From a virus (lineage: Duplodnaviria; Caudoviricetes): a DNA stretch of 64,000 nucleotides. A program made the translations under genes and the position numbers. Every line of letters begins with the position of its first letter. The stretch's first letter is position 1. The notes under the pieces were generated by a model. It was not told where the DNA came from. It searched no databases and saw only the letters and a list, made by a program, of their open reading frames with translations. The stretch lies in the IMG/VR virus record IMGVR_UViG_3300017722_005389; one strand, 5' to 3'. Below are positions 11,237 through 45,537 of this stretch, piece by piece.

Positions 11237-11733
11237 AAATTAATTTTATTATAAATATATTATCCGCTCTAAAGCATAATAGAAAATTTTTATAGTCTTT
11301 TGATATATTTTTGATTCCTTTTGAAACATTTTTTATACTCTTTTGATATTTATTATACTTTCTAAAGAAATTATATACCTATTCTAAAATTCAGGAAGCA
11401 AAAAATTTTACAACTTTTTTTTTAATAGGGGTTTCAAAAACGCCCTTTTGATAAAAAAAAATACTTTTTTTGAAAATTCACAATTTCTTAAGAAATAATA
11501 TTTTGTTTTTTGAGGGTTTTACAAAACTTTCTTTTGTGGGTTTTTAAACTTTCTTTTGAAGGGGGTAGCTAAACTCCCTCCCCAGCTGGATTTGGACACT
11601 CTAAAGAAAATAAAAAACCCTCCAAAGAAGTATAAAAACTTTCTATTGGAGGATTAAAAAAAAATATTGTCCCAAATCAACTTTCAAAGGAAATGTCCCA
11701 CCTATTTCCAATGGACAACATAAAAAACTTTCT

Positions 11734-11955
11734 TTAGAAAATTATCATAGCTTTCTCTTGAAGTACTCTTTCGCTCATTGTTGCGAATTGAAGTGTCCCT
11801 TTTTCAAGAGCTGAGGCTTCATTAGGAGATAAGAGTTTCATCAGTTCAGGCTTCTGAATTCGGAATCTTTTGTATTTCTGACGTTTTTCGTTAATTTCGT
11901 AGAGATCAAACAGGTGGTTGTTCGAATAATTGACAATTTCGTATAATCTGTTCAT
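11734..11955 (-). CDS. Hypothetical protein
   Basis: Start moved to MNRLYE. Confidence 0.55.
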   Translation of the reverse strand: MNRLYEIVNYSNNHLFDLYEINEKRQKYKRFRIQKPELMKLLSPNEASALEKGTLQFATMSERVLQEKAMIIF

Positions 11956-12049
11956 AAAATTTTCTTTATTAATATACAATTTTCCAAAGAAAAATAAAAA
12001 ATTCCCAGAGAAATCATAAAAAATTTCTTTGGGAAGCAAAAAATGTCCT

Positions 12050-12420
12050 AATGTGTATACGAAATTTATATCATATCTCCAATATACGAAGATTCAAACG
12101 TCCCAGTCCAGGTTCAAAAGAACGTATATTCAATTTTCTTTTGAAAAAGATCAGGTTTCTCATGAAAATGTGAGTGTCCAAGGTCAAATTTCGGCTGTCC
12201 AGGGACCAGAAATGACCAAAAAGTGTCAAAAAACACGGTGTTTTACCAAAAAATACAACAAAAACGTTCAATTGGATGACCATAAATTGCATAAGTGATT
12301 GATTTCCAATGAAATATTAAATTTCAAAGGAAAAAAGTGTCAAAAAACACGGTGTTTTACCAAAAATGTTCAAATGAATCAGCCCTGAAACGTTCAAAAG
12401 AACGATCTCAGGGCTGAGGG
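12050..12420. repeat. Non-coding repeat locus with TATACG motifs and a duplicated 35-bp palindrome-containing unit
   Basis: aaaaagtgtcaaaaaacacggtgttttaccaaaaa at 12218-12252 and 12332-12366; aatatacgaagatt shared with 34026 and 39090. Confidence 0.7.
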
Positions 12421-12605
12421 AATTTAAAATTTTTCAAAAGGAAGTCTACTAAGCTTTCTTTTGAATAAAATGTTTGTTTAATTTTCTTAAAATGGACTGT
12501 AGCGAAGTCTACATTCTTCCAAACGACAATTTTTGTGGTACCTCTTTTGAAGGTATACGGATTTTTATCTGGTTTGAAACCCCAGGCTAGCAAAGTTTGC
12601 TTCAT
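12408..12605 (-). CDS. Hypothetical protein
   Basis: Start moved to MKQTLL. Confidence 0.5.
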   Translation of the reverse strand: MKQTLLAWGFKPDKNPYTFKRGTTKIVVWKNVDFATVHFKKIKQTFYSKESLVDFLLKNFKFPQP

Positions 12606-12956
12606 AAGATATACTAAAAATTTTCTAAAGGAGGTAATGTATATGTTCAATAGTAGCAATATACGTAAAGTACTGAACTTTGGCACTGATTGCGACCTGA
12701 GCCTTCACTCAGGGTACAGCAAAGGTGGGAAGCATTTTTGAGAAAACCAAATTTTTTTGGAACTTTAACAAAAAATATTTTTGGTATTAGAATATGTTCA
12801 ATATACGAAAATTTCGATTTAGTGTTGGGTTGGATTACAAACCCCCAACTTTACAGTTTAGCCTCCGATAGTATCAAAGGTACGACTTTCTTCTGACATT
12901 TCATAATTTTTCTTAAGAAAATTTCAGTTTCTTTATATTTATTTTAAAAGCAGGCA

Positions 12957-15963: not shown

Positions 15964-16060
15964 AGTCCTGTGGCGGAATTGGTAGACGCACCGAAAGGTA
16001 GGAACGGTATGGAACCCGATTAAATAATCCTAATTACAGGTTCAAATCCTGTCAGGACCA
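15964..16060 (+). tRNA. tRNA-like RNA (Leu/Ser-type D arm, canonical T arm, aberrant anticodon arm; anticodon not assignable)
   Basis: TGGCGGAATTGGTAGACGC D arm, ACAGG-TTCAAAT-CCTGT T arm, GTCCTG/CAGGAC acceptor stem; about 45 nt between D and T arms. Confidence 0.7.
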
Positions 16061-32832: not shown

Positions 32833-33759
32833 TTACATTGCCACCGACATTGCATCGTACATTGCCTTAGTCACAATGAAGCTATTGTCCGACTGATTTT
32901 TAGGAACTTTTTTCAAGTTCAACCCTAAGACTTGTTTTTCTTGCAAGAACGTCAAATCTGTTTCATCGCCATTTGCGACATCGTAACCTAAAAACGTTTC
33001 GGGGAATTGACCACCAAAAGAAGCTAAGTCAAAGACTACAGCTATTTTTTGTCCAATTGACAATGCATACATAGCTGTAGCTATATTGTTATGCTCATTG
33101 GTATTTGCATAGCTGAATGTAACATCATAATTGCTATGCTCATTGGCATTGTCCAATTGCTTTTGCATCTTAGTATAGTCATAGAATTGAACATCTGAAT
33201 GAATGTCCAATAATGACTGGCTATCAGTTTTAAACAAGTTAATGTTCAAATCTGATGTACCATTCAAACGAACAGCAAAGTTCTTATTTTGTGATGCAGA
33301 CAAAAACTTTGCAGCACTAATTTCGGCATTAAGCCAATCCATAAAAAAGTTTCGGTTAAAAAAGAATAACCAAGTTTTTTTCAGTCTTGCCCAAGTTATT
33401 TGGTTAATAACTTGTCCTTCAGTTAACATCATTGCCCTACCTGATTCAACAAGACAAGCTTGTTTGCAGCCTGATGTAGCTTGCGGACAAATATTGAAAC
33501 CTGACATATCTGCTGCTGCAAGATACATTACTAAGGTATTGTAATCTTTTTTCTCGCCTTTGACAATCTTAGCTGAACTATTTACGCCAGCAAGATACGA
33601 CAAACCTGTCATTTTTGTAGCCTTTGAACGGTTGACAAATTTTTTGCTTTCAACGTTTCGAAGCATTGTAATTACTTCTTTCATTTTTGAAAGATAGTCT
33701 GACTTAGATGCAGACACTTCTGCTACAGCACCTGCAATTTTTTTAAGGAAAGCTTTCAT
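32833..33759 (-). CDS. GP88-like (radical-SAM-related) phage protein
   Basis: NICPQATSGCKQACL, VRLNGTSDL, QFYDYTK, YDVTFS, NGDETDLTFL. Confidence 0.8.
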   Translation of the reverse strand: MKAFLKKIAGAVAEVSASKSDYLSKMKEVITMLRNVESKKFVNRSKATKMTGLSYLAGVNSSAKIVKGEKKDYNTLVMYLAAADMSGFNICPQATSGCKQACLVESGRAMMLTEGQVINQITWARLKKTWLFFFNRNFFMDWLNAEISAAKFLSASQNKNFAVRLNGTSDLNINLFKTDSQSLLDIHSDVQFYDYTKMQKQLDNANEHSNYDVTFSYANTNEHNNIATAMYALSIGQKIAVVFDLASFGGQFPETFLGYDVANGDETDLTFLQEKQVLGLNLKKVPKNQSDNSFIVTKAMYDAMSVAM

Positions 33760-33844
33760 AGTGTATGAAATTTAATAGTGAAACAATAATAAGTACAAAG
33801 ATAGTAAAAGATATTAGAACTACAAATAATTTCAAAAGAAAATT

Positions 33845-34165
33845 TAAAATATTTTTTGTAGTCGTAACTACCTTTGCAAATATCTTGAGACAAAGATATA
33901 ACAAGTTTTTCAAATAAAAAAATTTATTTTTACCTCAAAAGAACTTTTTTAATTTCCAAATTTTTTAACAATTTTAACTAAAAAAAATTCTGGCATTGTA
34001 ATATACGAAAACACGCTGGCAACGAAATATACGAAGATTTCAATCTGTTGCAGGTCTGGATTAATCCTACCTTCGAACTTCGTCTCAGAGATATGCACTA
34101 TCAATTAGCTGTTACAAAAGTATGCATAATAGCTGGCATTACAAAATATTTTTAGTTAAATTTTT
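33845..34165. repeat. ~300-bp regulatory module copy 1 (upstream of GP88-like gene)
   Basis: Colinear near-identity with 38855-39215. Confidence 0.85.
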
Positions 34166-34367
34166 AAATTATTTTAAAATAATTTTCAAAGGAAAGATCT
34201 TTGTTTCTTTTGAACCCAGATTTGCCTCTATTCGCTTAAAATTTGCCATCTGAGACACTTTCACTCCAGTCTGGATTAATACCTCGATCCAAATGTAAAA
34301 ACGTCTCAGATCGAATATACGACAAGCTGGTATAAGGAATAAAAAAACCCCTTTCGGGGTTCAGAAG

Positions 34368-34520
34368 TTATTTTGATATCTTTATTTGTCTGTCATAAAG
34401 ATAATCTTTATAAACAGCATATACATTGTAATCTTGCTCTTCTCTAACGAAGATTAACTTTTCATCTTCAGCTGGTGTGTAAGATTTTAAAACTTGCTTT
34501 GAACTCTTTTTCATAAACAT
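34368..34520 (-). CDS. Small hypothetical protein
   Basis: ORF ending before terminator aaaaaaaccc-ctttc-ggggtt. Confidence 0.55.
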   Translation of the reverse strand: MFMKKSSKQVLKSYTPAEDEKLIFVREEQDYNVYAVYKDYLYDRQIKISK

Positions 34521-34534
34521 AATTTTTAAAGTTA

Positions 34535-34726
34535 TTATATAAGTTCCCATTTAATTACTGAGTCACTCAGTATGTTTAATATTTGCCCAGCCTCAAATCT
34601 GTCAATTACCGCATACTGAATTGTCAAAGTTTCTTTATCTTTACCCAGTAAAGATTCAGAGGTTCTAAAGGTGCTACAAAAACTATTGAATAGTTTTTTG
34701 TTGTTTAATTTCATCTGTAGTGTCAT
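34535..34726 (-). CDS. Hypothetical protein
   Basis: 63-aa ORF with leader. Confidence 0.7.
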   Translation of the reverse strand: MTLQMKLNNKKLFNSFCSTFRTSESLLGKDKETLTIQYAVIDRFEAGQILNILSDSVIKWELI

Positions 34727-35119
34727 AAGTTAAAGTTTTAATAGTGATTTAATGAGTACAAATTACGATATTATTATTGACACTACCAAATTATTTTAGT
34801 TAAAATTTTAAAATAATTTTCAAAAGAAAAATCTTTGTTTCTTTTGAACCCAGGTCCAGATTGCCCAGATTGCCCAGATATAACTCTAATGATTAAAATT
34901 TTGCCATCTGAGACGCTTTTAGCTATTCAGTAACATCTTAGCCCAGACTGGTATAAAAGTGTCTTAGATCGAAGATTGTCACAAATTATTACTATAATTG
35001 GGACAAATTTAATGATCATTCGCAAAAAAAATAGACTACCAAAAGAAAATTATTGATCTACATTTGGTAGTCTATTATACTTATCGCAAAAAAAAAGCTA
35101 CCATAAAGGTAGCCTTAAT

Positions 35120-35287
35120 TTATCTTACAATGTATGCACTATCTTTGACAAACATTACCTTGAGCGTATCATCACCGCTCCATTGGTAGTTGTCTGGTGT
35201 TACAGCAGATGCAGATGCAGTTTCAAAATTTTGCAGCAGAAAATAAGCCACAACAACTAGTACTACTAATATCAGAAAATCTTTCAT
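35120..35287 (-). CDS. Small membrane-anchored protein (not in ORF track)
   Basis: MKDFLILVVLVVVAYFLLQ..., 55 aa, leader upstream. Confidence 0.6.
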   Translation of the reverse strand: MKDFLILVVLVVVAYFLLQNFETASASAVTPDNYQWSGDDTLKVMFVKDSAYIVR

Positions 35288-35567
35288 AAGTGTAAGTTTT
35301 AATAGTGAAGTAATTATCTTTGGCTTGATTTAACACAATTGGCTACGCTTGGTGCTTGATGAGCAATCTGTGAAGTTTCAAGTAATAGAACCTCTACAAG
35401 CATTCCATTTATGAACATTACAAGTTTTTCTTCATTTTTGGATTTCATTGGTAGTGAATTTAAATGGTAAATTAAATATAGTGTAAAATTACAAAAGAAA
35501 GTTGGCATTTCAAAATAAATTACCAACTTTCTTTTGTGTAAACCCAAAATTTTTCTTTTGAAATAAT

Positions 35568-35924
35568 TTAATTTATTCTGACACCATTTTTGAATGTAAC
35601 TATAAAGCAGTCTCTGAACATTGTTCGTCTGTAGTATGAATGCTTTATATAGGCATCAGCTAAATCTTCTGAAGGAATTAAAACTCTGTAGATTATTTTT
35701 CCATCTTTCAGACAAGCAGTCTCAAATTCATAGGCATCAATAACCTGTTCATGAAACTTAGGTTTCTGCATCAGCATTTCTAGGTTTGATGTTGAAGCTA
35801 TCTGTACTGCATATTGAATTTTATCGGGTACACAAGGAACTGTTTTGTTATCGGTGCTATCAATTGATTGCCCAAAAGAAAAAGTTGCTGTAACGACAAA
35901 TAATGCGATTAAAATCTTTTTCAT
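35568..35924 (-). CDS. Secreted SPOR-like peptidoglycan-binding protein
   Basis: Signal peptide; YAVQIAS, IYRVLI, DCFIVTFKNGVRI. Confidence 0.6.
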   Translation of the reverse strand: MKKILIALFVVTATFSFGQSIDSTDNKTVPCVPDKIQYAVQIASTSNLEMLMQKPKFHEQVIDAYEFETACLKDGKIIYRVLIPSEDLADAYIKHSYYRRTMFRDCFIVTFKNGVRIN

Positions 35925-35930
35925 AAAGTT

Positions 35931-36089
35931 TTATTTTGTGTTTGAAGTAATGATTTTTATTATAGCTAAAACGAATGCTGTCCTTTCAGACATTGTTTCT
36001 TTCAGTTTAGCAAACGTTCTGTCGAACTCAGATTGATTTTCTTTTGAAATTTCAATCTTATAATTGAGTTTTGATATGTTAACTTTCAT
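35931..36089 (-). CDS. Small hypothetical protein
   Basis: Start moved to MKVNIS. Confidence 0.55.
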   Translation of the reverse strand: MKVNISKLNYKIEISKENQSEFDRTFAKLKETMSERTAFVLAIIKIITSNTK

Positions 36090-36180
36090 TTTTAATAATG
36101 AGTGAATTAAATTAGAAAACAAAATTAAAAAAGAAAGTTGGCATTTCAAAATAAATTACCAACTTTCTTTTGAATGAATT

Positions 36181-36420
36181 TTATACCGCAATTAACCAAT
36201 CAGTAACACCCCAATTTACTGAACTTGTAACCGAATAACCTTTTCTCCTAAGTCTATCAGCTACGATAGGCATATACATAAATTCCTCTACAGACCAACC
36301 AAATGAGGGTGCATCTTTGCAAGTTGTAAAGGTAGTGGTTAAACTATTACCACTTAACCAACCTTCAATTCTGTTCTGTAGTTCAGTAATGAACTGCTCT
36401 TTTCTTTCTAATGCTGTCAT
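36181..36420 (-). CDS. Hypothetical protein
   Basis: 79-aa cassette gene. Confidence 0.75.
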   Translation of the reverse strand: MTALERKEQFITELQNRIEGWLSGNSLTTTFTTCKDAPSFGWSVEEFMYMPIVADRLRRKGYSVTSSVNWGVTDWLIAV

Positions 36421-36568
36421 AAGTTATAAAATTTTAATAGTGAGTGAAATAAAATAAGTGCGTAAGTGATTTAATTGACCTTACAAAGGTAAGGATTAGT
36501 TTTATTATTTCAAAAGAAAATTCAAACTTTCTTTCGTATACTTTGAATTTTCTTTTGAAATGTTTTTT

Positions 36569-36742
36569 TTATCTGTTGATATACTGAATTCTCTGGCTTA
36601 CTACCAGCATATTGATAAAGAATAATACACAAAAAAGAAGCGAATAAAATGTACCAAATAATATAGCTGCACACATAATGCTAACAGCAGCAGCAGCCGA
36701 AAATAAAATGATAACAATAGCTGAAATGAATTGAGTTTTCAT
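36569..36742 (-). CDS. Small membrane protein
   Basis: Start moved to MKTQF; two TM helices. Confidence 0.65.
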   Translation of the reverse strand: MKTQFISAIVIILFSAAAAVSIMCAAILFGTFYSLLFCVLFFINMLVVSQRIQYINR

Positions 36743-36803
36743 AGTAAAAGTTTTTAAAGTGAGTTTAATATTTGCAGTTGGCTGGATGCTACACCCAGAA
36801 TTT

Positions 36804-37073
36804 TCATTCAATTATATACCCTTTCATTTTTTTGGCACATTCATTTCCAATTGGAAACATTCCTTGTGTTTCAGCACCTGTCATTTCAAGACATTTTTCA
36901 TCAGTTATTGATGGATGAACAGCCAACCAATTTGTATTCATATGAACGTATTTTTTATCATTTGCTTTCATTGGTTTGCCACAACAAATGCACTGGTCTT
37001 CTGCCTGACCATATTTGTCCAAATTGCTGTCTAACATTGGGGAAACATAGAGTTCCTTTGTAATCTGTTCCAT
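36804..37073 (-). CDS. Zn-binding hypothetical protein
   Basis: CICCGK...FPIGNECAKK. Confidence 0.8.
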   Translation of the reverse strand: MEQITKELYVSPMLDSNLDKYGQAEDQCICCGKPMKANDKKYVHMNTNWLAVHPSITDEKCLEMTGAETQGMFPIGNECAKKMKGYIIE

Positions 37074-37135
37074 AATAGTAAATTTTTAAAGTGAGTTTAA
37101 TATTTGCAGTTGGTCGGATACTGCGCCCCGAATGA

Positions 37136-37393
37136 TTATTCTGTAAGTTGTGTTGGCATTTTAAACCAATCTGCTGGCTCATACGAGCCAATTATAATGT
37201 CAACACAATTGATTGTCACATAGAACGCATTACAATTGTCCAAATATGGGTCGGAATCAAAAAATTCCAACTTGTATTTGCCGTTATTGGTTTCAATAAC
37301 ATCAACAAACCCATAGGTTCTATTGTATTGAACCATAATGTTTTTTACATACTGCCAATCCGATTGGCTTGCTTTATAATCTGACTTTGCCAT
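37136..37393 (-). CDS. Hypothetical protein
   Basis: 85-aa cassette gene. Confidence 0.7.
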   Translation of the reverse strand: MAKSDYKASQSDWQYVKNIMVQYNRTYGFVDVIETNNGKYKLEFFDSDPYLDNCNAFYVTINCVDIIIGSYEPADWFKMPTQLTE

Positions 37394-37492
37394 AATTATC
37401 AATTTTTAATAGTGTCCAACAAAGGTAGTGATTAGTTCTGAATAATCATAATTATTTCAAAAGAAAATTCAAATTATTTTCTAAAGAAAAAA

Positions 37493-37744
37493 TCAGTTCA
37501 AGCTTGACATATACGATAGCTTATCCTGGCTGTGTCCAAGTCTGAAATAGACATCAGCTAAGAACAAAAACTTTTGTCTAAGTGCAGACTCACTATGTTC
37601 AAAAATTTCAGTCTCAAGTTCAATTGTCTCTGCAATTTCAGCTATCAGTTTCAAAGTTTCTGAAGCTATCTTTAGATCAGAAATTGTCGGCTTGTCCAAT
37701 AGCCTATTAAATAGATCGAAATTCATTTGAATTATTTTTCTCAT
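37493..37744 (-). CDS. Hypothetical protein
   Basis: Start moved to MRKIIQ. Confidence 0.6.
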   Translation of the reverse strand: MRKIIQMNFDLFNRLLDKPTISDLKIASETLKLIAEIAETIELETEIFEHSESALRQKFLFLADVYFRLGHSQDKLSYMSSLN

Positions 37745-37787
37745 ATGTATTTTTATTTGTGGGGGGCTTTCGCCCCCCGATGAATAA

Positions 37788-38771
37788 TTATTCTGCTTCT
37801 GCTTCGGTTGGTTCAACTGCTGTTGCCAATGAACGTCCAAGTATCAGTTCAACTGCTTTTTTTGCCTCGTTGACTGCCTTGAATATCCACTTAGGCTCAC
37901 TTTCAAGTTTCGATATCCAACCGTTCAGATATGCTTGAGAGTTTTGAACGTTCATTTGGATGCCTGACAACTCGCAAAGCATTCCTGCGCCTATTTCGGC
38001 TATCAGTTCTTCATAGCTGTACTGATGACTACCAAAGCGGTCAAATTGCGCTACACCTTGTCGGTTCAATTTGTCCATGTTACCAGTGCTATGCACCAAT
38101 TCATGGAATAGGGTTTGATAGTAAGCATCGGAACTTACAAATTGTCCAATACTCGGCATATACAATATGTTAAATTGTGGGCTGTATGCAGCACTATTCG
38201 ATTCAATGATTTTGGGGCAATTTGCATAGCCTTTCAAGATGCTTTCGCCATTGTCCAAAATTGGGTTGTTTTTCGCTTCGGGAATGTACTTAGACATATC
38301 CCAATTTAAATGGTCTATTGAAAATACCACAAACCCTTTTACAGTTGGAAAACTGTATGTCTTTTTTTCGCCATTGCTGTCCAAGATAGGATTGCCATTG
38401 GCATCTTTGCATTCCTTTGTTATCGGTGTTACTCGAATAAGGTGCAGACCTTTCGCACCCTTTTTAATTGGGAAAGGTACAGCAGCACCTTTGCTATCGA
38501 CATAACCGTTACCTTGCTTTTTGTAGCCAAGCTTTTTTGCAGCACCTGCAACTGTAGCATAGTGCGCTTGAACGCCATACATAGATGCATGGAGATTCGC
38601 CCAAAATGCATTTGAACCTGTGTATACGCTGTCATAAGCTACATTGCCTACAATAGATGTTATCCAAGGCTTTTGCCATCCGACAATCCCTTGTTTCAAA
38701 CCGTTAATGAATAGTTCTGTAATCTTAGCTTCAACAGAAGCTTCGACATTAGCATTTTTAGTGTACGCCAT
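37788..38771 (-). CDS. ardC: ArdC-like antirestriction protein (ssDNA-binding domain plus zincin domain)
   Basis: WQKPW, YTGSNA, YYQTLFHELVHSTG, YSYEELIAEIGA, YLNGW. Confidence 0.9.
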   Translation of the reverse strand: MAYTKNANVEASVEAKITELFINGLKQGIVGWQKPWITSIVGNVAYDSVYTGSNAFWANLHASMYGVQAHYATVAGAAKKLGYKKQGNGYVDSKGAAVPFPIKKGAKGLHLIRVTPITKECKDANGNPILDSNGEKKTYSFPTVKGFVVFSIDHLNWDMSKYIPEAKNNPILDNGESILKGYANCPKIIESNSAAYSPQFNILYMPSIGQFVSSDAYYQTLFHELVHSTGNMDKLNRQGVAQFDRFGSHQYSYEELIAEIGAGMLCELSGIQMNVQNSQAYLNGWISKLESEPKWIFKAVNEAKKAVELILGRSLATAVEPTEAEAE

Positions 38772-38854
38772 AATAGTGAGTTTAAAAGTGAAATAATAAG
38801 TACAAAAATATGCAAAAGTTTTGAAACGGCAAAATTTTAAATGTTAAATTTTTA

Positions 38855-39215
38855 AAATATTTTTTGTAGCCGTAACTACCTTTGCAAATATCTTGAGACA
38901 AAGATATAACAAGTTTTTTAATTATTCAAATTTATTTTTACCTCAAAAGAACTTTTTTAAATTCCAAATTTTTTAACAATTTTAACTAAAAAAAATTCTG
39001 GCATTGTAATATACAACATATACGACAAATTGTATAATATACGACGTATACGACAAATTGTAATATACGAGATATACGACAGATTATATAATATACGAAG
39101 ATTTCAATCTGAGGTAGGTTTGGATTAATCCTACCTTCGAATTTACTCTCAGAGATATGCTCTATCAATTAGCTATACAAAGGTATGCATAATAGTTGAC
39201 ATTTCAAAATTATTT
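38855..39215. repeat. ~300-bp regulatory module copy 2 (upstream of ardC) with expanded ATATACG array
   Basis: Matches 33845-34165; about 7 TATACG-type motifs at 39005-39100. Confidence 0.85.
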
Positions 39216-39517
39216 CAAAAGAAAATTTAAAATATTTTCAAAATAAAATGATCAAAAAATTTGGATATATCAAATTTCCGCCTGTGCCATTTTCTCTCAA
39301 AAGATGACTCTATATATCAAAAGAAAATAAAGTTTCTTCTGAGGGCAAATCTGAGCGTTCTGAGGGGTAAATCTGAGGCTATCTTAGGGTAAATCTGAGG
39401 CTATCTGAATCTAAACTGATAGCCAGATTTTGATATACGACATATACGACATATACGAAAAATTGATAGCCAGATTTTGATATACGACAAACTGATATAA
39501 GCATAAAAAAAAGTCCC

Positions 39518-39760
39518 TTATAGGGACTCAAATTCAGAAGGGGTTATACTATAAGCTTCAGGTGAATACCATCCTGCTGTAACGTAATTCCAATTGTAAT
39601 TTTTAGTTTTTGCGTCAGTATGAATATGTATGCTACCATATTTATTTATTCCGTTAAATATGGCATTAGTGCATTTTACATCTGAGCAATAATAATTACC
39701 CTCTTTTTTAATGCTTTCTACATTAACTCTTTGCCCGATTTTAAAATTTGTGTGTTCCAT
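39518..39760 (-). CDS. Hypothetical protein (repeat-array cassette 1)
   Basis: 80-aa ORF. Confidence 0.75.
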   Translation of the reverse strand: MEHTNFKIGQRVNVESIKKEGNYYCSDVKCTNAIFNGINKYGSIHIHTDAKTKNYNWNYVTAGWYSPEAYSITPSEFESL

Positions 39761-40344: not shown

Positions 40345-40675
40345 TGAATAGTAGTGTTTAAAGTGAATTAAATAATTTACCTTACAAAGGTATACTTTGT
40401 TTTTATATTATTATAATTTTTTTTGCTTTATTTTCAAAAATAAAAAATTTAACTAAATTTATTTTGAAATATCAAATTTCGATTCTGGGGCATTGTTTTT
40501 CCTTAGAAGGTATAAGATGTCCAAATGTCAATAAAATGCTCTCTGAGGGCAAATCTGAGTGTTCTGAATGCATCTGAACGTTCTAATGACATCTGATAAC
40601 CCCAATAAATGATATACTAAAAAATTACCTATAGGCAATAAAAAAACCCCTTTCGGGGTTTCTGTTTTGATAAAT

Positions 40676-41002
40676 TTAATCGTTTTTGAAGATTTTAGAA
40701 AATAATTGGTCAATACCAAATCCTAATACTTGATGTTTTGTACCATTCATTTCAAAATGACATTCAATCTCGATGCCATATATTGTTTTACCTGTACCCA
40801 CACAAACTAATGTATCGCCAAAATCTGCTTTATTTGGAAGATACAATTCATAGCTTTGACTACCATAATAGCCATCGTGATAGGTGTACCCACCCCCACC
40901 AGTTGATAGGGCTAATACTTGCTGGCTGTTACGAATTTTAATTTTTGTTCCATAGTAATTGATATAATAATCAACAGATTTTAAAGATTTTTGCGTTGTC
41001 AT
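40676..41002 (-). CDS. Hypothetical protein (cassette 3)
   Basis: 108-aa ORF. Confidence 0.8.
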   Translation of the reverse strand: MTTQKSLKSVDYYINYYGTKIKIRNSQQVLALSTGGGGYTYHDGYYGSQSYELYLPNKADFGDTLVCVGTGKTIYGIEIECHFEMNGTKHQVLGFGIDQLFSKIFKND

Positions 41003-41319
41003 AATAGTAGTGTTTAAAGTGAATTAAATTATTGACCTTACAAAGGTATACTTTGTTTTTATATTATTATAACTTTTTTTACTTTATTTTCAAAAATAAA
41101 AATTTTAACTAAATTTATTTGGAAATATCAAATTTCGATTCTGGGGCATTATTTTTCTTCAGAAGGTATAAGATGTCCAAATGCCAATAAAATGCTTTCT
41201 GAGGGCAAATCTGAACGTTCTGAAGGCATCTGAACGTTCTGAAGGTATCTGATAACCCCGATGAATGATATACGACAATTTGATATAGGGACAAAAAAAA
41301 TCCCCTTTCGGGGACTTTT

Positions 41320-41619
41320 TTAAAAAAAAGAAATTTCAATTTCTTTTTTTTGTGTTATTAACTCATATCGGCTCTCGCCAACATATTTGCGAGAAACGAT
41401 ATGTTTATTTTTTTGTATGTAAAATGTTCCCTTTATAATTAATACATCGCCCTTTGGCGATGCTTTCCAATGGATAATGTCAGTTACAGTTACTGACACC
41501 ATTGTTATTTGCCTATTATAAGTTATAGGTACAATAATTCTGTCACCTATGGTGTTTGGGCAATAATCGTACGTTAAGTTAGTTAGGCAGTTGTTTCTAA
41601 CAATTGTTACCTTTTTCAT
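41320..41619 (-). CDS. Hypothetical protein (cassette 4)
   Basis: 99-aa ORF. Confidence 0.75.
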   Translation of the reverse strand: MKKVTIVRNNCLTNLTYDYCPNTIGDRIIVPITYNRQITMVSVTVTDIIHWKASPKGDVLIIKGTFYIQKNKHIVSRKYVGESRYELITQKKEIEISFF

Positions 41620-41956
41620 AATAGTAGTGTTTAAAGTGAATTAAATTAATGACCTTACAAAGGTATACTTTATCTTGATATTATTATAATTTTTTTTGCT
41701 TTATTTTCAAAAATAAAAAATTTAACTAAATTTATTTGGAAATATCAAATCTCCATTCTGGGGCATTATTTTTCTTTAGAAGGTATATGACATCCAAAAG
41801 ATAATAAAATGCACTCAGAGGGCAAATCTGAGTGTTCTGAATGCATCTGAGTGTTCTGAATGCATCTGAGTGTTCTGAATGCATCGGATAACCCCAATAA
41901 ATGATATACTAAAAAATTACCTATAGGCAATAAAAAAACCCCTTTCGGGGTTTCTG

Positions 41957-42286
41957 TTATATTGCCCAAACACCACCGCAACCACAATTAGATTCTTCGG
42001 GTTCTTTGCGATTCCCACAATCGCAGTATATCAAATCTTCGTAGGCTTTTTCAGCCTCGAATAATGCACTTTCGGTGGCATAGCCTTTGCGAGAATAACC
42101 ATCCCAACCTTTGAGTTTAGAACTCAATTGCGAGAGGTTTTTTTCCGCTTGTTGCAACTTTGTAAGTTGCGTTGGTTGTGTTGGCATTTTGAACCAATCC
42201 TGCTTTAGCAACCAATCCTGATACCATTTAGGGGTATTAGAAAAATTTTCGCCTTTGTACTTTCCGAATTTAAGAATGAAGTTCAT
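41957..42286 (-). CDS. DUF3820-like N-terminus plus Cys-rich tail (cassette 5)
   Basis: LKFGKYKG....TPKWY.DWL; CDCG..CGCG. Confidence 0.7.
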   Translation of the reverse strand: MNFILKFGKYKGENFSNTPKWYQDWLLKQDWFKMPTQPTQLTKLQQAEKNLSQLSSKLKGWDGYSRKGYATESALFEAEKAYEDLIYCDCGNRKEPEESNCGCGGVWAI

Positions 42287-42628
42287 AATAGTAGTGTTTA
42301 AAGTGAATTAAATTAATGACCTTACAAAGATATACTTTGTTTTTATATTATTATAATTTTTTCTACTTTATTTTCAAAAATAAAAAATTTAACTAAATTT
42401 ATTTGGAAATATCAAATTTCGATTCTGGAGCATTGTTTTTCCTTAGAAGGTATAAGATGTCCAAATGCCAATAAAATGCTTTCTGAGGGCAAATCTGAGC
42501 GTTCTGTAGGCATCTGAGTGTAAATCTGTCCGACATTCAATTGCCCGATAGATAATATGCTACATTGCTTTATGGTATACTAAAAAATGTCCAATGGGCA
42601 AAAAAAAAGCCCCTTTCGGGGCTGTTGG

Positions 42629-43282
42629 TTATTCGTTTACTACAATGGTTTCACCCATTGCTTTCAGCGTATGTATCGCTGAAACTTTGAATTGGCGGAA
42701 TTTACCGCTTTTCATTTTAGACCTTAATATGTCTTTCGCTTTAGTTAATGCATACCTTGTGTCGGTTTTTTCAGTTTCGCTTTCGGTGACTACAACTTTG
42801 TCCCGAACTTGAAACCCGAACACAAAATATTCGTTTGTTGTCGGGTTGAACTTGAACCCATTGTCCAAGATTTCATAGGCAGATTTTTGCCCTTTGCTTC
42901 TGTTGTAGGCTGTTTGAACATCTTTAGCAGTGCAGTTTATGTCAGCTTTAGTGCCAATTCCCGAAAGGAATTGAACAACCAATCCTGCAATATGCGTGAA
43001 ATCTGCATCCGCTTTAAAATGGCGCAAATAATCAGCAATTTTGAATGCTTTTAATAGCTCAACACGAGCCGTTTCAAGCAGCATATCTTTGTCGCTGAAA
43101 TTTAGCGACATAAGATAATTGAAATCGTCAGATTTAGCCTTTTCAAGGCTGTAACCGACATTTATCAGTTGGTTTTGAACTTCGCCAAGTTCATTTGTGT
43201 AGCCATTGATAGCTACAAAACTTGTACCTTTAATTTGGCTTAGTGTAGCCTTAACAGTTTCAAAAGACATTACATTTGTCAT
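42629..43282 (-). CDS. Hypothetical protein (cassette 6), paralog of 26864..27367
   Basis: Shared motifs with 26864. Confidence 0.85.
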   Translation of the reverse strand: MTNVMSFETVKATLSQIKGTSFVAINGYTNELGEVQNQLINVGYSLEKAKSDDFNYLMSLNFSDKDMLLETARVELLKAFKIADYLRHFKADADFTHIAGLVVQFLSGIGTKADINCTAKDVQTAYNRSKGQKSAYEILDNGFKFNPTTNEYFVFGFQVRDKVVVTESETEKTDTRYALTKAKDILRSKMKSGKFRQFKVSAIHTLKAMGETIVVNE

Positions 43283-43545
43283 AATAGTAGTGTTTAAAGT
43301 GAATTAAATAATTGACCTTACAAAGGTCTTATTTTATTTTATATTATTATAATTTTTTCTACTTTATTTTCAAAAATAAAAAATTTAACATAAAAAATTT
43401 GGAAATATCAAATTTCGATTCTGAAGCGTTATTTTTCAAAAGTCAACATAGTGTCCAACTAATGACATAAAATGGCTCAAAACCCGGTTTTTGTGGCTTC
43501 TGAAGGCATATAAGGTTCTTTAGAAAATCAATATTTTTTCTTTAG

Positions 43546-43825
43546 AAGGTGTCCGATATACTAAAGTTTTATTATATACGAATGTGTCCAATGTACGTTG
43601 TATACGTTATATACGAATGTGTCCAATGTACGCTGTATACGTTATATGCGAATGTGTCCAATGTACGCTGTATACGTTATATACGAAGGTGTCCGATATA
43701 CTAAAGTTTTATTATATACGAATGTGTCCAATGTACGTTGTATACGTTATATACGAATGTGTCCAATGTACGCTGTATACGTTATATACGAATGTGTCCA
43801 ATGTACGTTGTATACGTTATATACA
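43546..43825. repeat. Eight 35-bp tandem units in a BAAA-BAAA higher-order arrangement
   Basis: A = aatgtgtccaatgtacg(t/c)tgtatacgttatatacg; B = aaggtgtccgatatactaaagttttattatatacg. Confidence 0.95.
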
Positions 43826-44225
43826 CAGCTACCTACTATATACGACATATACGCAAGTATGTACAATATACGTTATATACGAAAATTTGCCCATACCATA
43901 TACAAGATATACAACAACACCTACCATATACGTCATATACGCAGTACCTACTATATACGTTATATACGTAAGTACCTACTATATACGTCATATACGCAGT
44001 ACCTACCATATACGTTATATACGACAGTACCTACTATATACGTTATATACGAAGCCCCTACCATATACGTTATATACGCAGTACCTACCATATATAACAT
44101 ATACGAAAGTATAGCCCTACCATATACGAAAATATACCCCTACCATATACGAAAATACCCCTCCCCTCCATATACGACATCTCCCCCTACCCATATACGA
44201 AACCCCCCTCCTGACCTGTATACGA
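43826..44225. repeat. Degenerate ~27-29 bp array of cctac(c/t)atatacgttatatacg grading into C-run repeats
   Basis: Direct reading; paired ATATACG 9 nt apart. Confidence 0.9.
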
Positions 44226-44284
44226 AATCTGGTCATGGATCAGCCGACCTGCTAAAAAAATTTTTTTCAAAATTTTCAAATTCC

Positions 44285-44440
44285 CCAAAGAAAGCAATCT
44301 TATCTTCCAAAGAAAGCAATCTTATCTTCCAAAGAAAGCAATCCTATCTTCCAAAGAAATTAAAATGTTTCCAAAGAAAGCAAAATGTTTCCAAAGAAAG
44401 TAAAATGTTTCCAAAGAAAGTAAAATGTTTCCAAAGAAAT
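44285..44440. repeat. ccaaagaaa 22-bp (x3) and 20-bp (x4-5) tandem repeats
   Basis: Direct reading. Confidence 0.9.
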
Positions 44441-44490
44441 TAATCATATTGTCGCAAAAATGTACAATATTTGCGACAGATAAAAACCTG

Positions 44491-44572
44491 AAATATCGTT
44501 GGAATGGGCGATAAATGAAAATATCGTTGCGATGGGTGATATATGAAAATATCGTTGCGATGGGTGATATAT
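44491..44572. repeat. Three ~28-bp tandem repeats gaaaatatcgttgcgatgggtgatatat
   Basis: Direct reading; first copy degenerate. Confidence 0.85.
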
Positions 44573-44652
44573 GTTTATTTCAAAAATGGGTCAGTGTCAA
44601 AAATTTTTTTTTGGTGAAATTTTGGTTTTTGGGGTATATTTATGATAAAATA

Positions 44653-45537
44653 ATGGATAATAGAAAATTATTAGATGAATCGAGAATAAATCAGAGGATG
44701 TTTCATTTGATGGAAAGTGGTTTCTTTGGAAAAAAACTTCTTAAGGAGGATGAGAGTCCTTATGATGATAATGATTTAGATAGCATGTCAAACTTAATAT
44801 TAAGTTGGGATAAGGTTAACATTGATATTGTTTTCACTATGCTTGAGGCTTATCCATTAGTTTTAGAAGAGTTTTTTAAACGTAGTGAATTTGAGGAACT
44901 AGAGCCATTTTTAAGGGAAAATCATTTAAGTTTTACTAAAGAAGATTTATATGAGTTTTCGGATGTCTATCATGTAAATATGTTTAACAATAAAGAAATC
45001 ACTGAGATACCTAAAAGTCTATTAAATTTACCAGAATTAGGTATAATAACTATTGCAAAATGTGGGCTAAAGAGTATACCTGTTGAGATTGGTAAATGTA
45101 AAATAAGAGAATTAGATTTGCGTGGAAATGATATTACTGATATACCTGATTCTCTTACAGATATAACTACATTAGACTATTTGGATTTGAGTCATAATAA
45201 AATTAGTTATTTGCCAGAATCGATTGGTAATTTGGTAGGATTGTTATATTTGGATGTGAGTAATAATAATCTTCACGATTTGCCTGACAGCATTGTTAAA
45301 TTAGATAAATTAGAACATTTTGATGTAGAAAATAATTACAGAATAAATTTGCCACGTGAGTATTGGGCGATATTCAATCAGACTATGGAGGATATATTTA
45401 GCGATGGGATGAGTTATCAAGAGTTGTTTCATAAGTTTAAGAATAGTGCTATTATGAGGTTTGATTCATTGAGGGATGGTGACAAGCGTAAGATATTGGA
45501 GGCGTTGTATGAGTATTGGAATTTGTATAAAAAATAA
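44653..45537 (+). CDS. Leader-bearing leucine-rich-repeat protein
   Basis: Start moved to MDNRK; HLMESGFFGK leader; LxxLxLxxNxL repeats (LDLRGNDITDIP, LDLSHNKISYLP, LDVSNNNLHDLP). Confidence 0.85.
   Translation: MDNRKLLDESRINQRMFHLMESGFFGKKLLKEDESPYDDNDLDSMSNLILSWDKVNIDIVFTMLEAYPLVLEEFFKRSEFEELEPFLRENHLSFTKEDLYEFSDVYHVNMFNNKEITEIPKSLLNLPELGIITIAKCGLKSIPVEIGKCKIRELDLRGNDITDIPDSLTDITTLDYLDLSHNKISYLPESIGNLVGLLYLDVSNNNLHDLPDSIVKLDKLEHFDVENNYRINLPREYWAIFNQTMEDIFSDGMSYQELFHKFKNSAIMRFDSLRDGDKRKILEALYEYWNLYKK

Follow-up and report, generated by a model that had tools for sequence, protein, structure and literature searches.

A block of about 1 kb at positions 43545–44575 of the window, by which we mean the whole stretch of 64,000 nucleotides analysed here (IMG/VR virus record IMGVR_UViG_3300017722_005389; Duplodnaviria, Caudoviricetes), consists of five successive tandem repeat arrays and contains about 37 copies of one oriented word, ATATACG. 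We interpret the block as a fast-evolving, amplified docking platform for a protein and as part of the grammar by which the phage controls its early genes. We favour this reading without quite calling it probable. The early-gene cassettes of the phage form a 25-kb series, and the block, at its head, would then be an enlarged upstream control region. The reading builds on the anatomy of the block, its strand bias, the recurrence of the word at early gene junctions, the conservation of the word and the rapid turnover of copy numbers, all of which we observe.

Repeat arrays of this general kind are familiar at early/late boundaries in phages. For uncultured Bacteroidota jumbo phages, we know of no mapped origins, regulators or early-promoter control. 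The conserved word of 7–11 nucleotides, with one site of about 37 copies and some six small ones, is a concrete bait for the protein that controls the early region or initiates replication there.

Anatomy of the repeat block

In the window, 1,370 bases without a credible gene separate the minus-strand early gene at 42629–43282 from a plus-strand gene that starts with the ATG at 44653 and encodes LRR domains. The first part of this interval is R6 (43283–43544, minus strand), the sixth copy of a predicted early promoter/leader unit of about 330 bp. An alignment of the copies R1–R6 shows that R6 has a TAnnTTTG-type −7 box, an A/T tract and a reduced TCTGA part. The five tandem families follow.

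The core word ATATACG occurs in arrays A, B and C, where its phase is 9 bp: A has it as a triplet, B as a doublet and C as a singlet. Each array adds a companion of its own, GTGTCCAA in A, AGTACCTACY in B and CCCCTACC in C. Array A (43545–43824) is a 140-bp unit present twice at 98% identity. Each unit is made of four 35-mers, one variant (GTCCGATATACTAAAG...TATACG) and three of the type AATGTGTCCAATGTACGYTGTATACGTTATATACG, a pattern that the original prediction had written as BAAA x2. Array B (about 43825–44105) has about ten units of 27/28 bp, AGTACCTACY plus ATATACGTYATATACG, each with the doublet ATATACGnnATATACG. Array C (44098–44230) has about five units of 23–25 bp, CCCCTACC plus ATATACGAAA. 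It adds a fifth family to the four that had been described before, all of which we find where they had been placed.

A unique block (ATCTGGTCATGGATCAGCCGACCTGC) and an A/T tract fill the interval 44231–44282. Array D (44283–44443) consists of 3.4 copies of a 22-bp unit and 4.8 copies of a 20-bp unit with the word TTCCAAAGAAAG. Read in the early sense this word is TTTCTTTGG; it resembles the −7-box arm of the PeSL-type early promoters of this phage and matches the TTTCTTTTG box of these hairpin-type promoters. An inverted repeat with 9-bp arms (TGTCGCAAA-N11-TTTGCGACA, 44450–44478) is either an operator-like or a hairpin element. It is followed by array E (44491–44574), three copies of the lineage-specific 28-bp unit AAATATCGTTGCGATGGGTGATATATGA. 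The plus-strand leader of the LRR gene (44575–44652) closes the interval, with the late-promoter-like TATATTTAT at 44635–44643.

To the left of the block lie small minus-strand genes with repeated promoter/terminator units between them, among them ArdC at 37788–38771. These genes extend over about 24.7 kb, to about 18.6 kb, in agreement with the 24 kb of leftward genes in the original prediction. Its second statement on the neighbourhood, that G-rich plus-strand genes lie to the right, also holds.

The word recurs at early gene junctions

The word is strongly biased to one strand. TATACG occurs 59 times on the plus strand of the window and 8 times on the minus strand. The excess is confined to intergenic clusters: outside them we count 11 copies where 10–11.5 are expected, 6 on one strand and 5 on the other. 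The clustering is far beyond chance. The word stands at expectation outside the clusters, and we reject the idea that it is avoided elsewhere.

All clusters beyond the main block are on the plus strand and intergenic. They lie at 41.27 kb (a single site), 39.43–39.48, 39.02–39.09, 34.0–34.3 and 12.06–12.80 kb. The cluster at 39007–39098 (28 bp, 3.4 copies) is upstream of the ArdC promoter module, and clusters at the same place are kept in two related phages, L125 and L129. The cluster at 39433–39486 (9 bp, 2.9 copies, and one more site) adjoins a terminator and is expanded in a third relative, L123. The sites at 34002–34321 lie beside a terminator, upstream of the promoter module of a GP88-like gene. 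Five further words at 12056–12807 are inside a second noncoding hinge (11.24–12.95 kb) together with the 22-bp repeat CCAAAGAAA. The secondary clusters at 39.4, 39.0 and 34.0 kb had been noted before, but the accompanying claim that they thin out with distance is only partly right, given the single site at 41.27 kb and the five words at 12.06–12.80 kb.

At the early junctions the word has a fixed place. One to six copies stand just past the terminator of the previous gene, 150–300 bp upstream of the next early start codon. The alignment of R1–R6 gives the same picture: each unit ends in GATATAC(T/G)A beside the upstream terminator, and array A starts at exactly that column in R6. Because A starts where R1–R5 carry GATATAC(T/G)A, the array seems to have grown out of an ordinary R unit.

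The same orientation holds in the relatives, where the early-sense form CGTATA outnumbers TATACG by 55 to 2, 40 to 1, 44 to 2 and 12 to 0. In L129 word pairs with the consensus TTGTCGTATAT stand directly after terminators, upstream of the ArdC and GP88-like promoter modules, in surrounding DNA that has diverged. Over 98 sites in three phages, ATATAC is conserved at 87–100% per position and the final G (position 7) at 90%; the flanks are weakly conserved. The word is not a late promoter, since the late consensus ATATTTATA differs from TATATACG.

Loose matches to the word pattern in IMG/VR proved unrelated: a collagen-like gene with GYT repeats (L037) and simple 9-bp microsatellites of other viruses (L099/L121 and L117–L120). 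A match from a metagenome scan, L122, is a eukaryote-like contig and also unrelated.

The R units have a second repeated word of their own. Arrays of 9/19-bp TCTGA repeats occur in each R unit (39338–39419, 40553–40596, 41209–41252, 41826–41885). The centre of the TCTGA 19-mer is a perfect palindrome, GAACGTTC, and a single repeat unit of L125 interleaves TCTGA with TATACG words.

Relatives keep the locus and vary its units

Four further lineages keep the locus: L115 (IMG/VR), L123 (JGI), L125/L126 (a 275,969-bp ENA contig, ArdC 85% identical) and L129/L130 (ArdC 68% identical). These relatives share the order D, C, B/A, R6, first early gene, and unit types and copy numbers vary everywhere. 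L115 has 14 B units, about one A unit, a D-type array of 5.6 20-bp copies and 1.9 copies of E. L123 has amplified the other 35-mer of A, and its contig stops within the array. In L125 a unit of 18+17 bp combines TCTGA with TATACG words, and a D-type array has 5.5 22-bp copies. Array E is absent from L125 and L129, array B from L129.

Array C is the conserved core. It is kept in L115, L123 and L125, and L129 has only about four CCCCTACC-N-TATACGAA units at the homologous site. Because the homologous site in L129 holds no more than these composite units, the large copy number in the window looks like a lineage-specific amplification of a small conserved site. The unique block and A/T tract to the right of C are near-identical in L115 and L125 and diverged in L129. 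The inverted repeat is identical in L115; in L125 it reads TTTGTCACAAAT...ATTTGTGACAAA, with both arms changed and the pairing kept.

The neighbours of the block differ in constancy. On the left, the first early gene is the one constant neighbour in the relatives. On the right, the window has the LRR gene and L115 has a gene for a signal-peptide protein, so the array is not tied to its right-hand gene. In L125 a gene for an RE_MjaI-like restriction endonuclease (L125:6049–6651) lies between array and late block, co-oriented with the early genes. Hence the array is not always at a divergence point: its placement there by the original prediction is right for the window and fails for L125, where this one gene intervenes. 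The broader description, an iteron-like noncoding array that heads the early genes and is kept in relatives, is borne out.

The RE_MjaI-like gene of L125 is followed by the conserved inverted repeat, which there resembles its terminator. The gene order also differs further left. In the JGI contig Ga0066181_10004906 (L146), compared with 33759–39760 of the window, the 80-aa gene is followed directly by the GP88-like gene and the ArdC interval is missing. Ahead of both ArdC and GP88 stands a copy of a duplicated 300-bp promoter module, and a deletion or an exchange between the two copies would fit this arrangement.

So variable a locus invites a neutral explanation. A functional site of about four words may have been inflated by slippage and unequal recombination in a highly recombinogenic phage, with the additional copies idle. 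The state of L129, about four units, would then be the basal one, and the differences in unit type and copy number in every relative, even between strains with identical flanks, would need no further cause; nor would the absence of E from two lineages and of B from one. However, at least four lineages retain large arrays although these are unstable, the word is intact in nearly every copy, and three different combinations of word and companion have each been amplified. We regard a mostly neutral satellite as rather improbable.

The block is noncoding and recovered independently

Three independent JGI contigs from other samples match the window at 100%, one over 40629–45282 (L137), one as far as 44226 (L139) and one as far as 43645 (L141). 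With an identical copy in independent assemblies and the same layout in four related lineages, the block is not the artefact of a single assembly, a concern that the original prediction had raised itself.

Copy number is less certain. Two ENA k141 contigs with 100% identical flanks have a shorter form, in which array A spans 70 bp instead of 280, array E has two copies instead of three and array D has lost one 22-mer and one 20-mer (L138). The polymorphism in D and E is probably real because these arrays are shorter than the assembler's k of 141. The length difference in A could be an assembly collapse. Since short and long forms differ among assemblies, the exact copy number of A is uncertain. 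Such rapid turnover of copy number makes the block a possible strain marker in lake metagenomes. One ENA contig (L140; ERZ27247906 k141_261151) has its end within array C, fused directly to a Nextera adapter (CTGTCTCTTATACACATCT...), an adapter chimera in a public assembly.

Gene callers place open reading frames (ORFs) of 160–265 aa across the arrays. Together with the shorter ENA form, these frames could be taken to mean that the block is coding sequence or misassembled. But the frames are by-products of the repeats: the array is noncoding, because its unit lengths (35, 27/28, 23–25, 20/22 and 28 bp) are not consistent multiples of three, and neither are the indels between strains (210, 22, 20 and 28 bp). 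The 100% matches of the JGI contigs and the same architecture in four diverged lineages leave the chance of an artefact or a hidden gene practically negligible.

No Rfam family is found in or near the array, which has nothing but short words in common with other parts of the window. A blastn search with 43300–44700 gives no match in INPHARED phages or PLSDB plasmids, and a search for the closest cultured relatives with the helicase and ArdC proteins finds none. A sigma-70 style promoter scan is uninformative for a Bacteroidota-type promoter.

A proposed docking platform for a protein

One oriented word stands upstream of several transcription units of the same replicon, in the window and in every relative. 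A conserved, oriented word at many terminator-to-promoter junctions points to one protein that reads all of them. We infer that a protein binds the word.

The block would present this protein, a sequence-specific DNA-binding protein, with densely packed docking sites. The word, in the early sense (TTGT)CGTATA(T), would belong to the ordinary grammar of the early genes. The first position in the series has no gene upstream of it, and here tandem duplication may have raised the word element to about 37 copies with three companion sequences. Array D has the look of a −7-box arm that was taken from the early promoters and amplified. The platform might concentrate or nucleate the protein, and could in this way boost or time early transcription or insulate it from the adjacent late block. 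The copy number itself would not be critical, and the block would evolve fast, by unequal exchange.

Arrays of a single short word are known from plasmids. For the omega heptad arrays of pSM19035 and the KorB sites of RK2, the proteins and their dual role as repressor and at the centromere are known. Like the block, they repeat one short word in tandem and in variable number, and a single replicon has such arrays ahead of several of its transcription units. One word upstream of several units implies one protein that reads many sites. Unlike in these plasmids, the word of the phage lies further upstream and one locus has been amplified tenfold.

A second comparison is with the PeSL cassettes of T4-type phages (PMC2839356, PMC4122927). 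As in these cassettes, the array adjoins repeated promoter/terminator units that bracket unrelated small early genes, the words of array D resemble one arm of a promoter hairpin, and exchanges between repeated units are visible in relatives. PeSLs, however, are single composite units between genes; kilobase-sized, gene-free arrays of their sub-elements are not described in the passages of PMC4122927 that we searched.

Several points weigh against a docking platform. Among the neighbouring genes no word-binding protein was identified; the conserved neighbour shows no signature of DNA binding, and its family at large has no link to arrays. The words, 150–300 bp upstream, lie beyond the reach of a simple class I or II activator, and about 37 of them at a single promoter exceed any regulatory need. 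Copy numbers differ between strains whose flanks are 100% identical, which neutral slippage fits equally well. Finally, oriE of phage T4 fits the same description, with repeats at even spacing, an early promoter next to them and a divergence (PMC3016281).

The word could also organise domains. A protein on oriented CGTATA words after early terminators would then partition early from late domains, and the large platforms at both edges of the 31-kb early region (43.5–44.6 kb and the degenerate hinge at 11.2–12.95 kb) would act as boundaries by insulating, looping or nucleating a spreading protein. To our knowledge, no word system that organises domains in this way has been described for a T4-like phage, and we consider it improbable that the word forms one here.

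A possible replication origin

The block could be a replication origin of the T4 oriE type, in which evenly spaced repeats beside an early promoter would mark the start. The direct repeats of oriE in T4 are evenly spaced ('iterons'; Vaiskunaite et al. 1999, reviewed in PMC3016281), and this origin needs an early promoter. The origins oriE, oriF and oriG lie at transcriptional divergences with compositional shifts, and oriF and oriG are primed by R-loops (PMC3016281). The block resembles oriE in its evenly spaced direct repeats, which related phages keep at the corresponding position. They lie next to a predicted early-mode promoter and small early genes and, in the window although not in L125, at a divergence. 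The promoter in question is that of the predicted unit R6, which adjoins the array. The block differs from oriE in size, because T4 has one cluster of 12-nt repeats and here five families with about 37 copies of a 7-nt word extend over 1 kb. Furthermore, the same word recurs here at other early junctions, and we detect neither a repEA/repEB homologue nor a skew inversion at four-fold degenerate sites.

Parts of the block speak for an origin. Theta origins of the iteron type have direct repeats of about 17–22 bp at a spacing of about two turns, and arrays C (23–25 bp, about 5 copies) and D (20–22 bp, about 8 copies) have an iteron-like spacing. About four to five C units are conserved in every relative. 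Within C, the cluster at 44158–44192 has the highest density of C-runs in the window and its only G4-like motif, on the early-sense strand, and this feature is conserved in relatives. A transcript in the early direction would be G-rich over this cluster and could form a stable R-loop that primes the leading strand. The arrays contain no terminator-like site, and L125 has a co-oriented gene that is read in the direction of the array. Beside the array lies an easily melted tract: positions 43328–43407, in R6, are the second least stable 80-mer of the window. However, the same A/T tract is common to all six R units.

The original prediction took a skew inversion at the array as a mark of an origin. 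The raw cumulative GC skew indeed has its window minimum at 43–45 kb. To separate the effect of the coding strand from that of position, we calculated the GC skew of the plus strand for four-fold degenerate sites. In the minus-strand genes immediately to the left of the array (39.5–43.3 kb) it is +0.15, and to the right (44.6–52.1 kb, plus-strand genes) it is +0.51. The silent-site skew is thus positive on both sides. It shows no inversion at the array; the raw one comes from the change of coding strand, and the claim is not supported.

Over the rest of the window, the skew in blocks of plus-strand genes is −0.68 at 0.2–4.6 kb, 0.00 at 12.9–18.2 kb and +0.26 at 53.9–59.2 kb. In blocks of minus-strand genes it is −0.15 at 4.7–11.2 kb, +0.29 at 13.8–14.9 kb, +0.31, +0.21 and +0.10 across 18.6–38.8 kb, +0.27 at 52.2–53.9 kb and +0.23 at 59.2–63.7 kb. 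The sign changes near 11–12 kb, at the second noncoding hinge. By the measure of skew, this hinge is a better origin candidate than the array. It comprises 1.7 kb of noncoding DNA (11240–12950) with the five TATACG words, the 22-bp repeat and duplicated palindromes. Raw GC-skew minima at transcriptional divergences should not be taken as origins without a check of silent sites; here the silent-site signal points to another noncoding hinge, 32 kb away.

Other origin markers are missing as well. With at most one mismatch, the DnaA box TTATCCACA occurs 17 times in the window where 23.8 are expected, and never between 32.4 and 48.1 kb. Searches of the neighbouring genes against PHROG and protein families detect no RepEA/RepEB or other initiator family next to the array. 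The word is dispersed over early junctions instead of being confined to one or two control loci. Even in T4, the role of the oriE repeats is unproven and a link between iterons and replication is not established (PMC3016281). Taken together, we hold an oriE-type origin to be possible but unlikely. It is compatible with the docking platform, which could double as an oriE-like origin.

A possible genome end

The original prediction also offered a packaging or first-entry end as an explanation. The block could mark a physical genome end, a packaging signal or a region like that of T5, where first entry or injection stops. The T5 iss region consists of 1.2–1.7 kb of noncoding, nested direct and inverted repeats beside the pre-early genes, where a 131-bp inverted-repeat pair in the terminal repeat contains eight DnaA boxes (bioRxiv 10.1101/866236). 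The block shares with repeat region 3 of this locus more than 1 kb of noncoding DNA, 'Russian-doll' nested repeats beside the first-expressed genes and an order kept among relatives. The genes beside it are of a type needed first, ArdC for example, and several contigs end in or near the array.

In contrast to T5, the block has neither DnaA boxes nor a long inverted-repeat pair, and the assemblies of relatives are circular or contain the array internally. It is internal in the 276-kb contig of L125. A 271,154-bp ENA contig ends in the R units, in R1, 3.4 kb left of the array, and starts with the next gene in the map (80 aa at 220–462), followed by ArdC. Because its start continues the map from its end, this assembly closes as a circle that was broken at the repeat of about 330 bp. 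The contig ends inside the array are explained by the repeats, and one of them is the adapter chimera. T4, for comparison, is circularly permuted and lacks defined ends (PMC3016281). The assemblies of relatives thus lend no support to a physical end, which is not proof against it. We find nothing that speaks positively for a packaging or first-entry end and consider any kind of terminus very unlikely.

A possible terminal repeat turned up elsewhere. The unrelated, GC-richer viral contig of 36.6 kb among the loose matches (L099/L121; IMGVR_UViG_3300045988_166349) has TATATACGT 9-bp tandem repeats at both ends, which may be a terminal repeat or a circular junction.

The first early gene

The first early gene (42629–43282, minus strand) lies directly downstream of the predicted promoter that the array heads. 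It encodes a protein of 217 aa from a large uncharacterised family, with 737 representatives after clustering at 50% identity. Homologues are found at the same position in L125 (69% identity), L129 (48%) and L115 (24%). The protein has no sequence match in Pfam, PHROG or the PDB and none to a Rep family. Its AF2 model has a pLDDT of 94.6. Foldseek finds no PDB match to this model at E≤0.001, and the VIA fold matches are weak, to Sm/WYL-like barrels at Z 6.0–6.6. Distant members of the family have no array upstream or adjoining. With no family match, weak fold matches and distant homologues without arrays, this protein is not supported as the cognate binder of the word. In one distant relative, the gene of this family adjoins a DUF932 gene.

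Likely late promoters and a tRNA-like sequence

A ATATTTATA-type motif stands 10–15 nt before the ATG of virion-type genes on both strands and is likely the late promoter. In the window it occurs upstream of the ATGs at 177, 5477, 6075, 10124, 11236, 14914, 49004, 49966, 55777 and 61265. The same late-type motif also precedes the LRR gene and the plus-strand genes to the right of the array.

At 15964–16060 on the plus strand, Rfam reports a 97-nt match to the tRNA family RF00005 (37.3 bits, E 3e-4) that ARAGORN does not report. The sequence may be a tRNA that contains an intron or is otherwise unusual.

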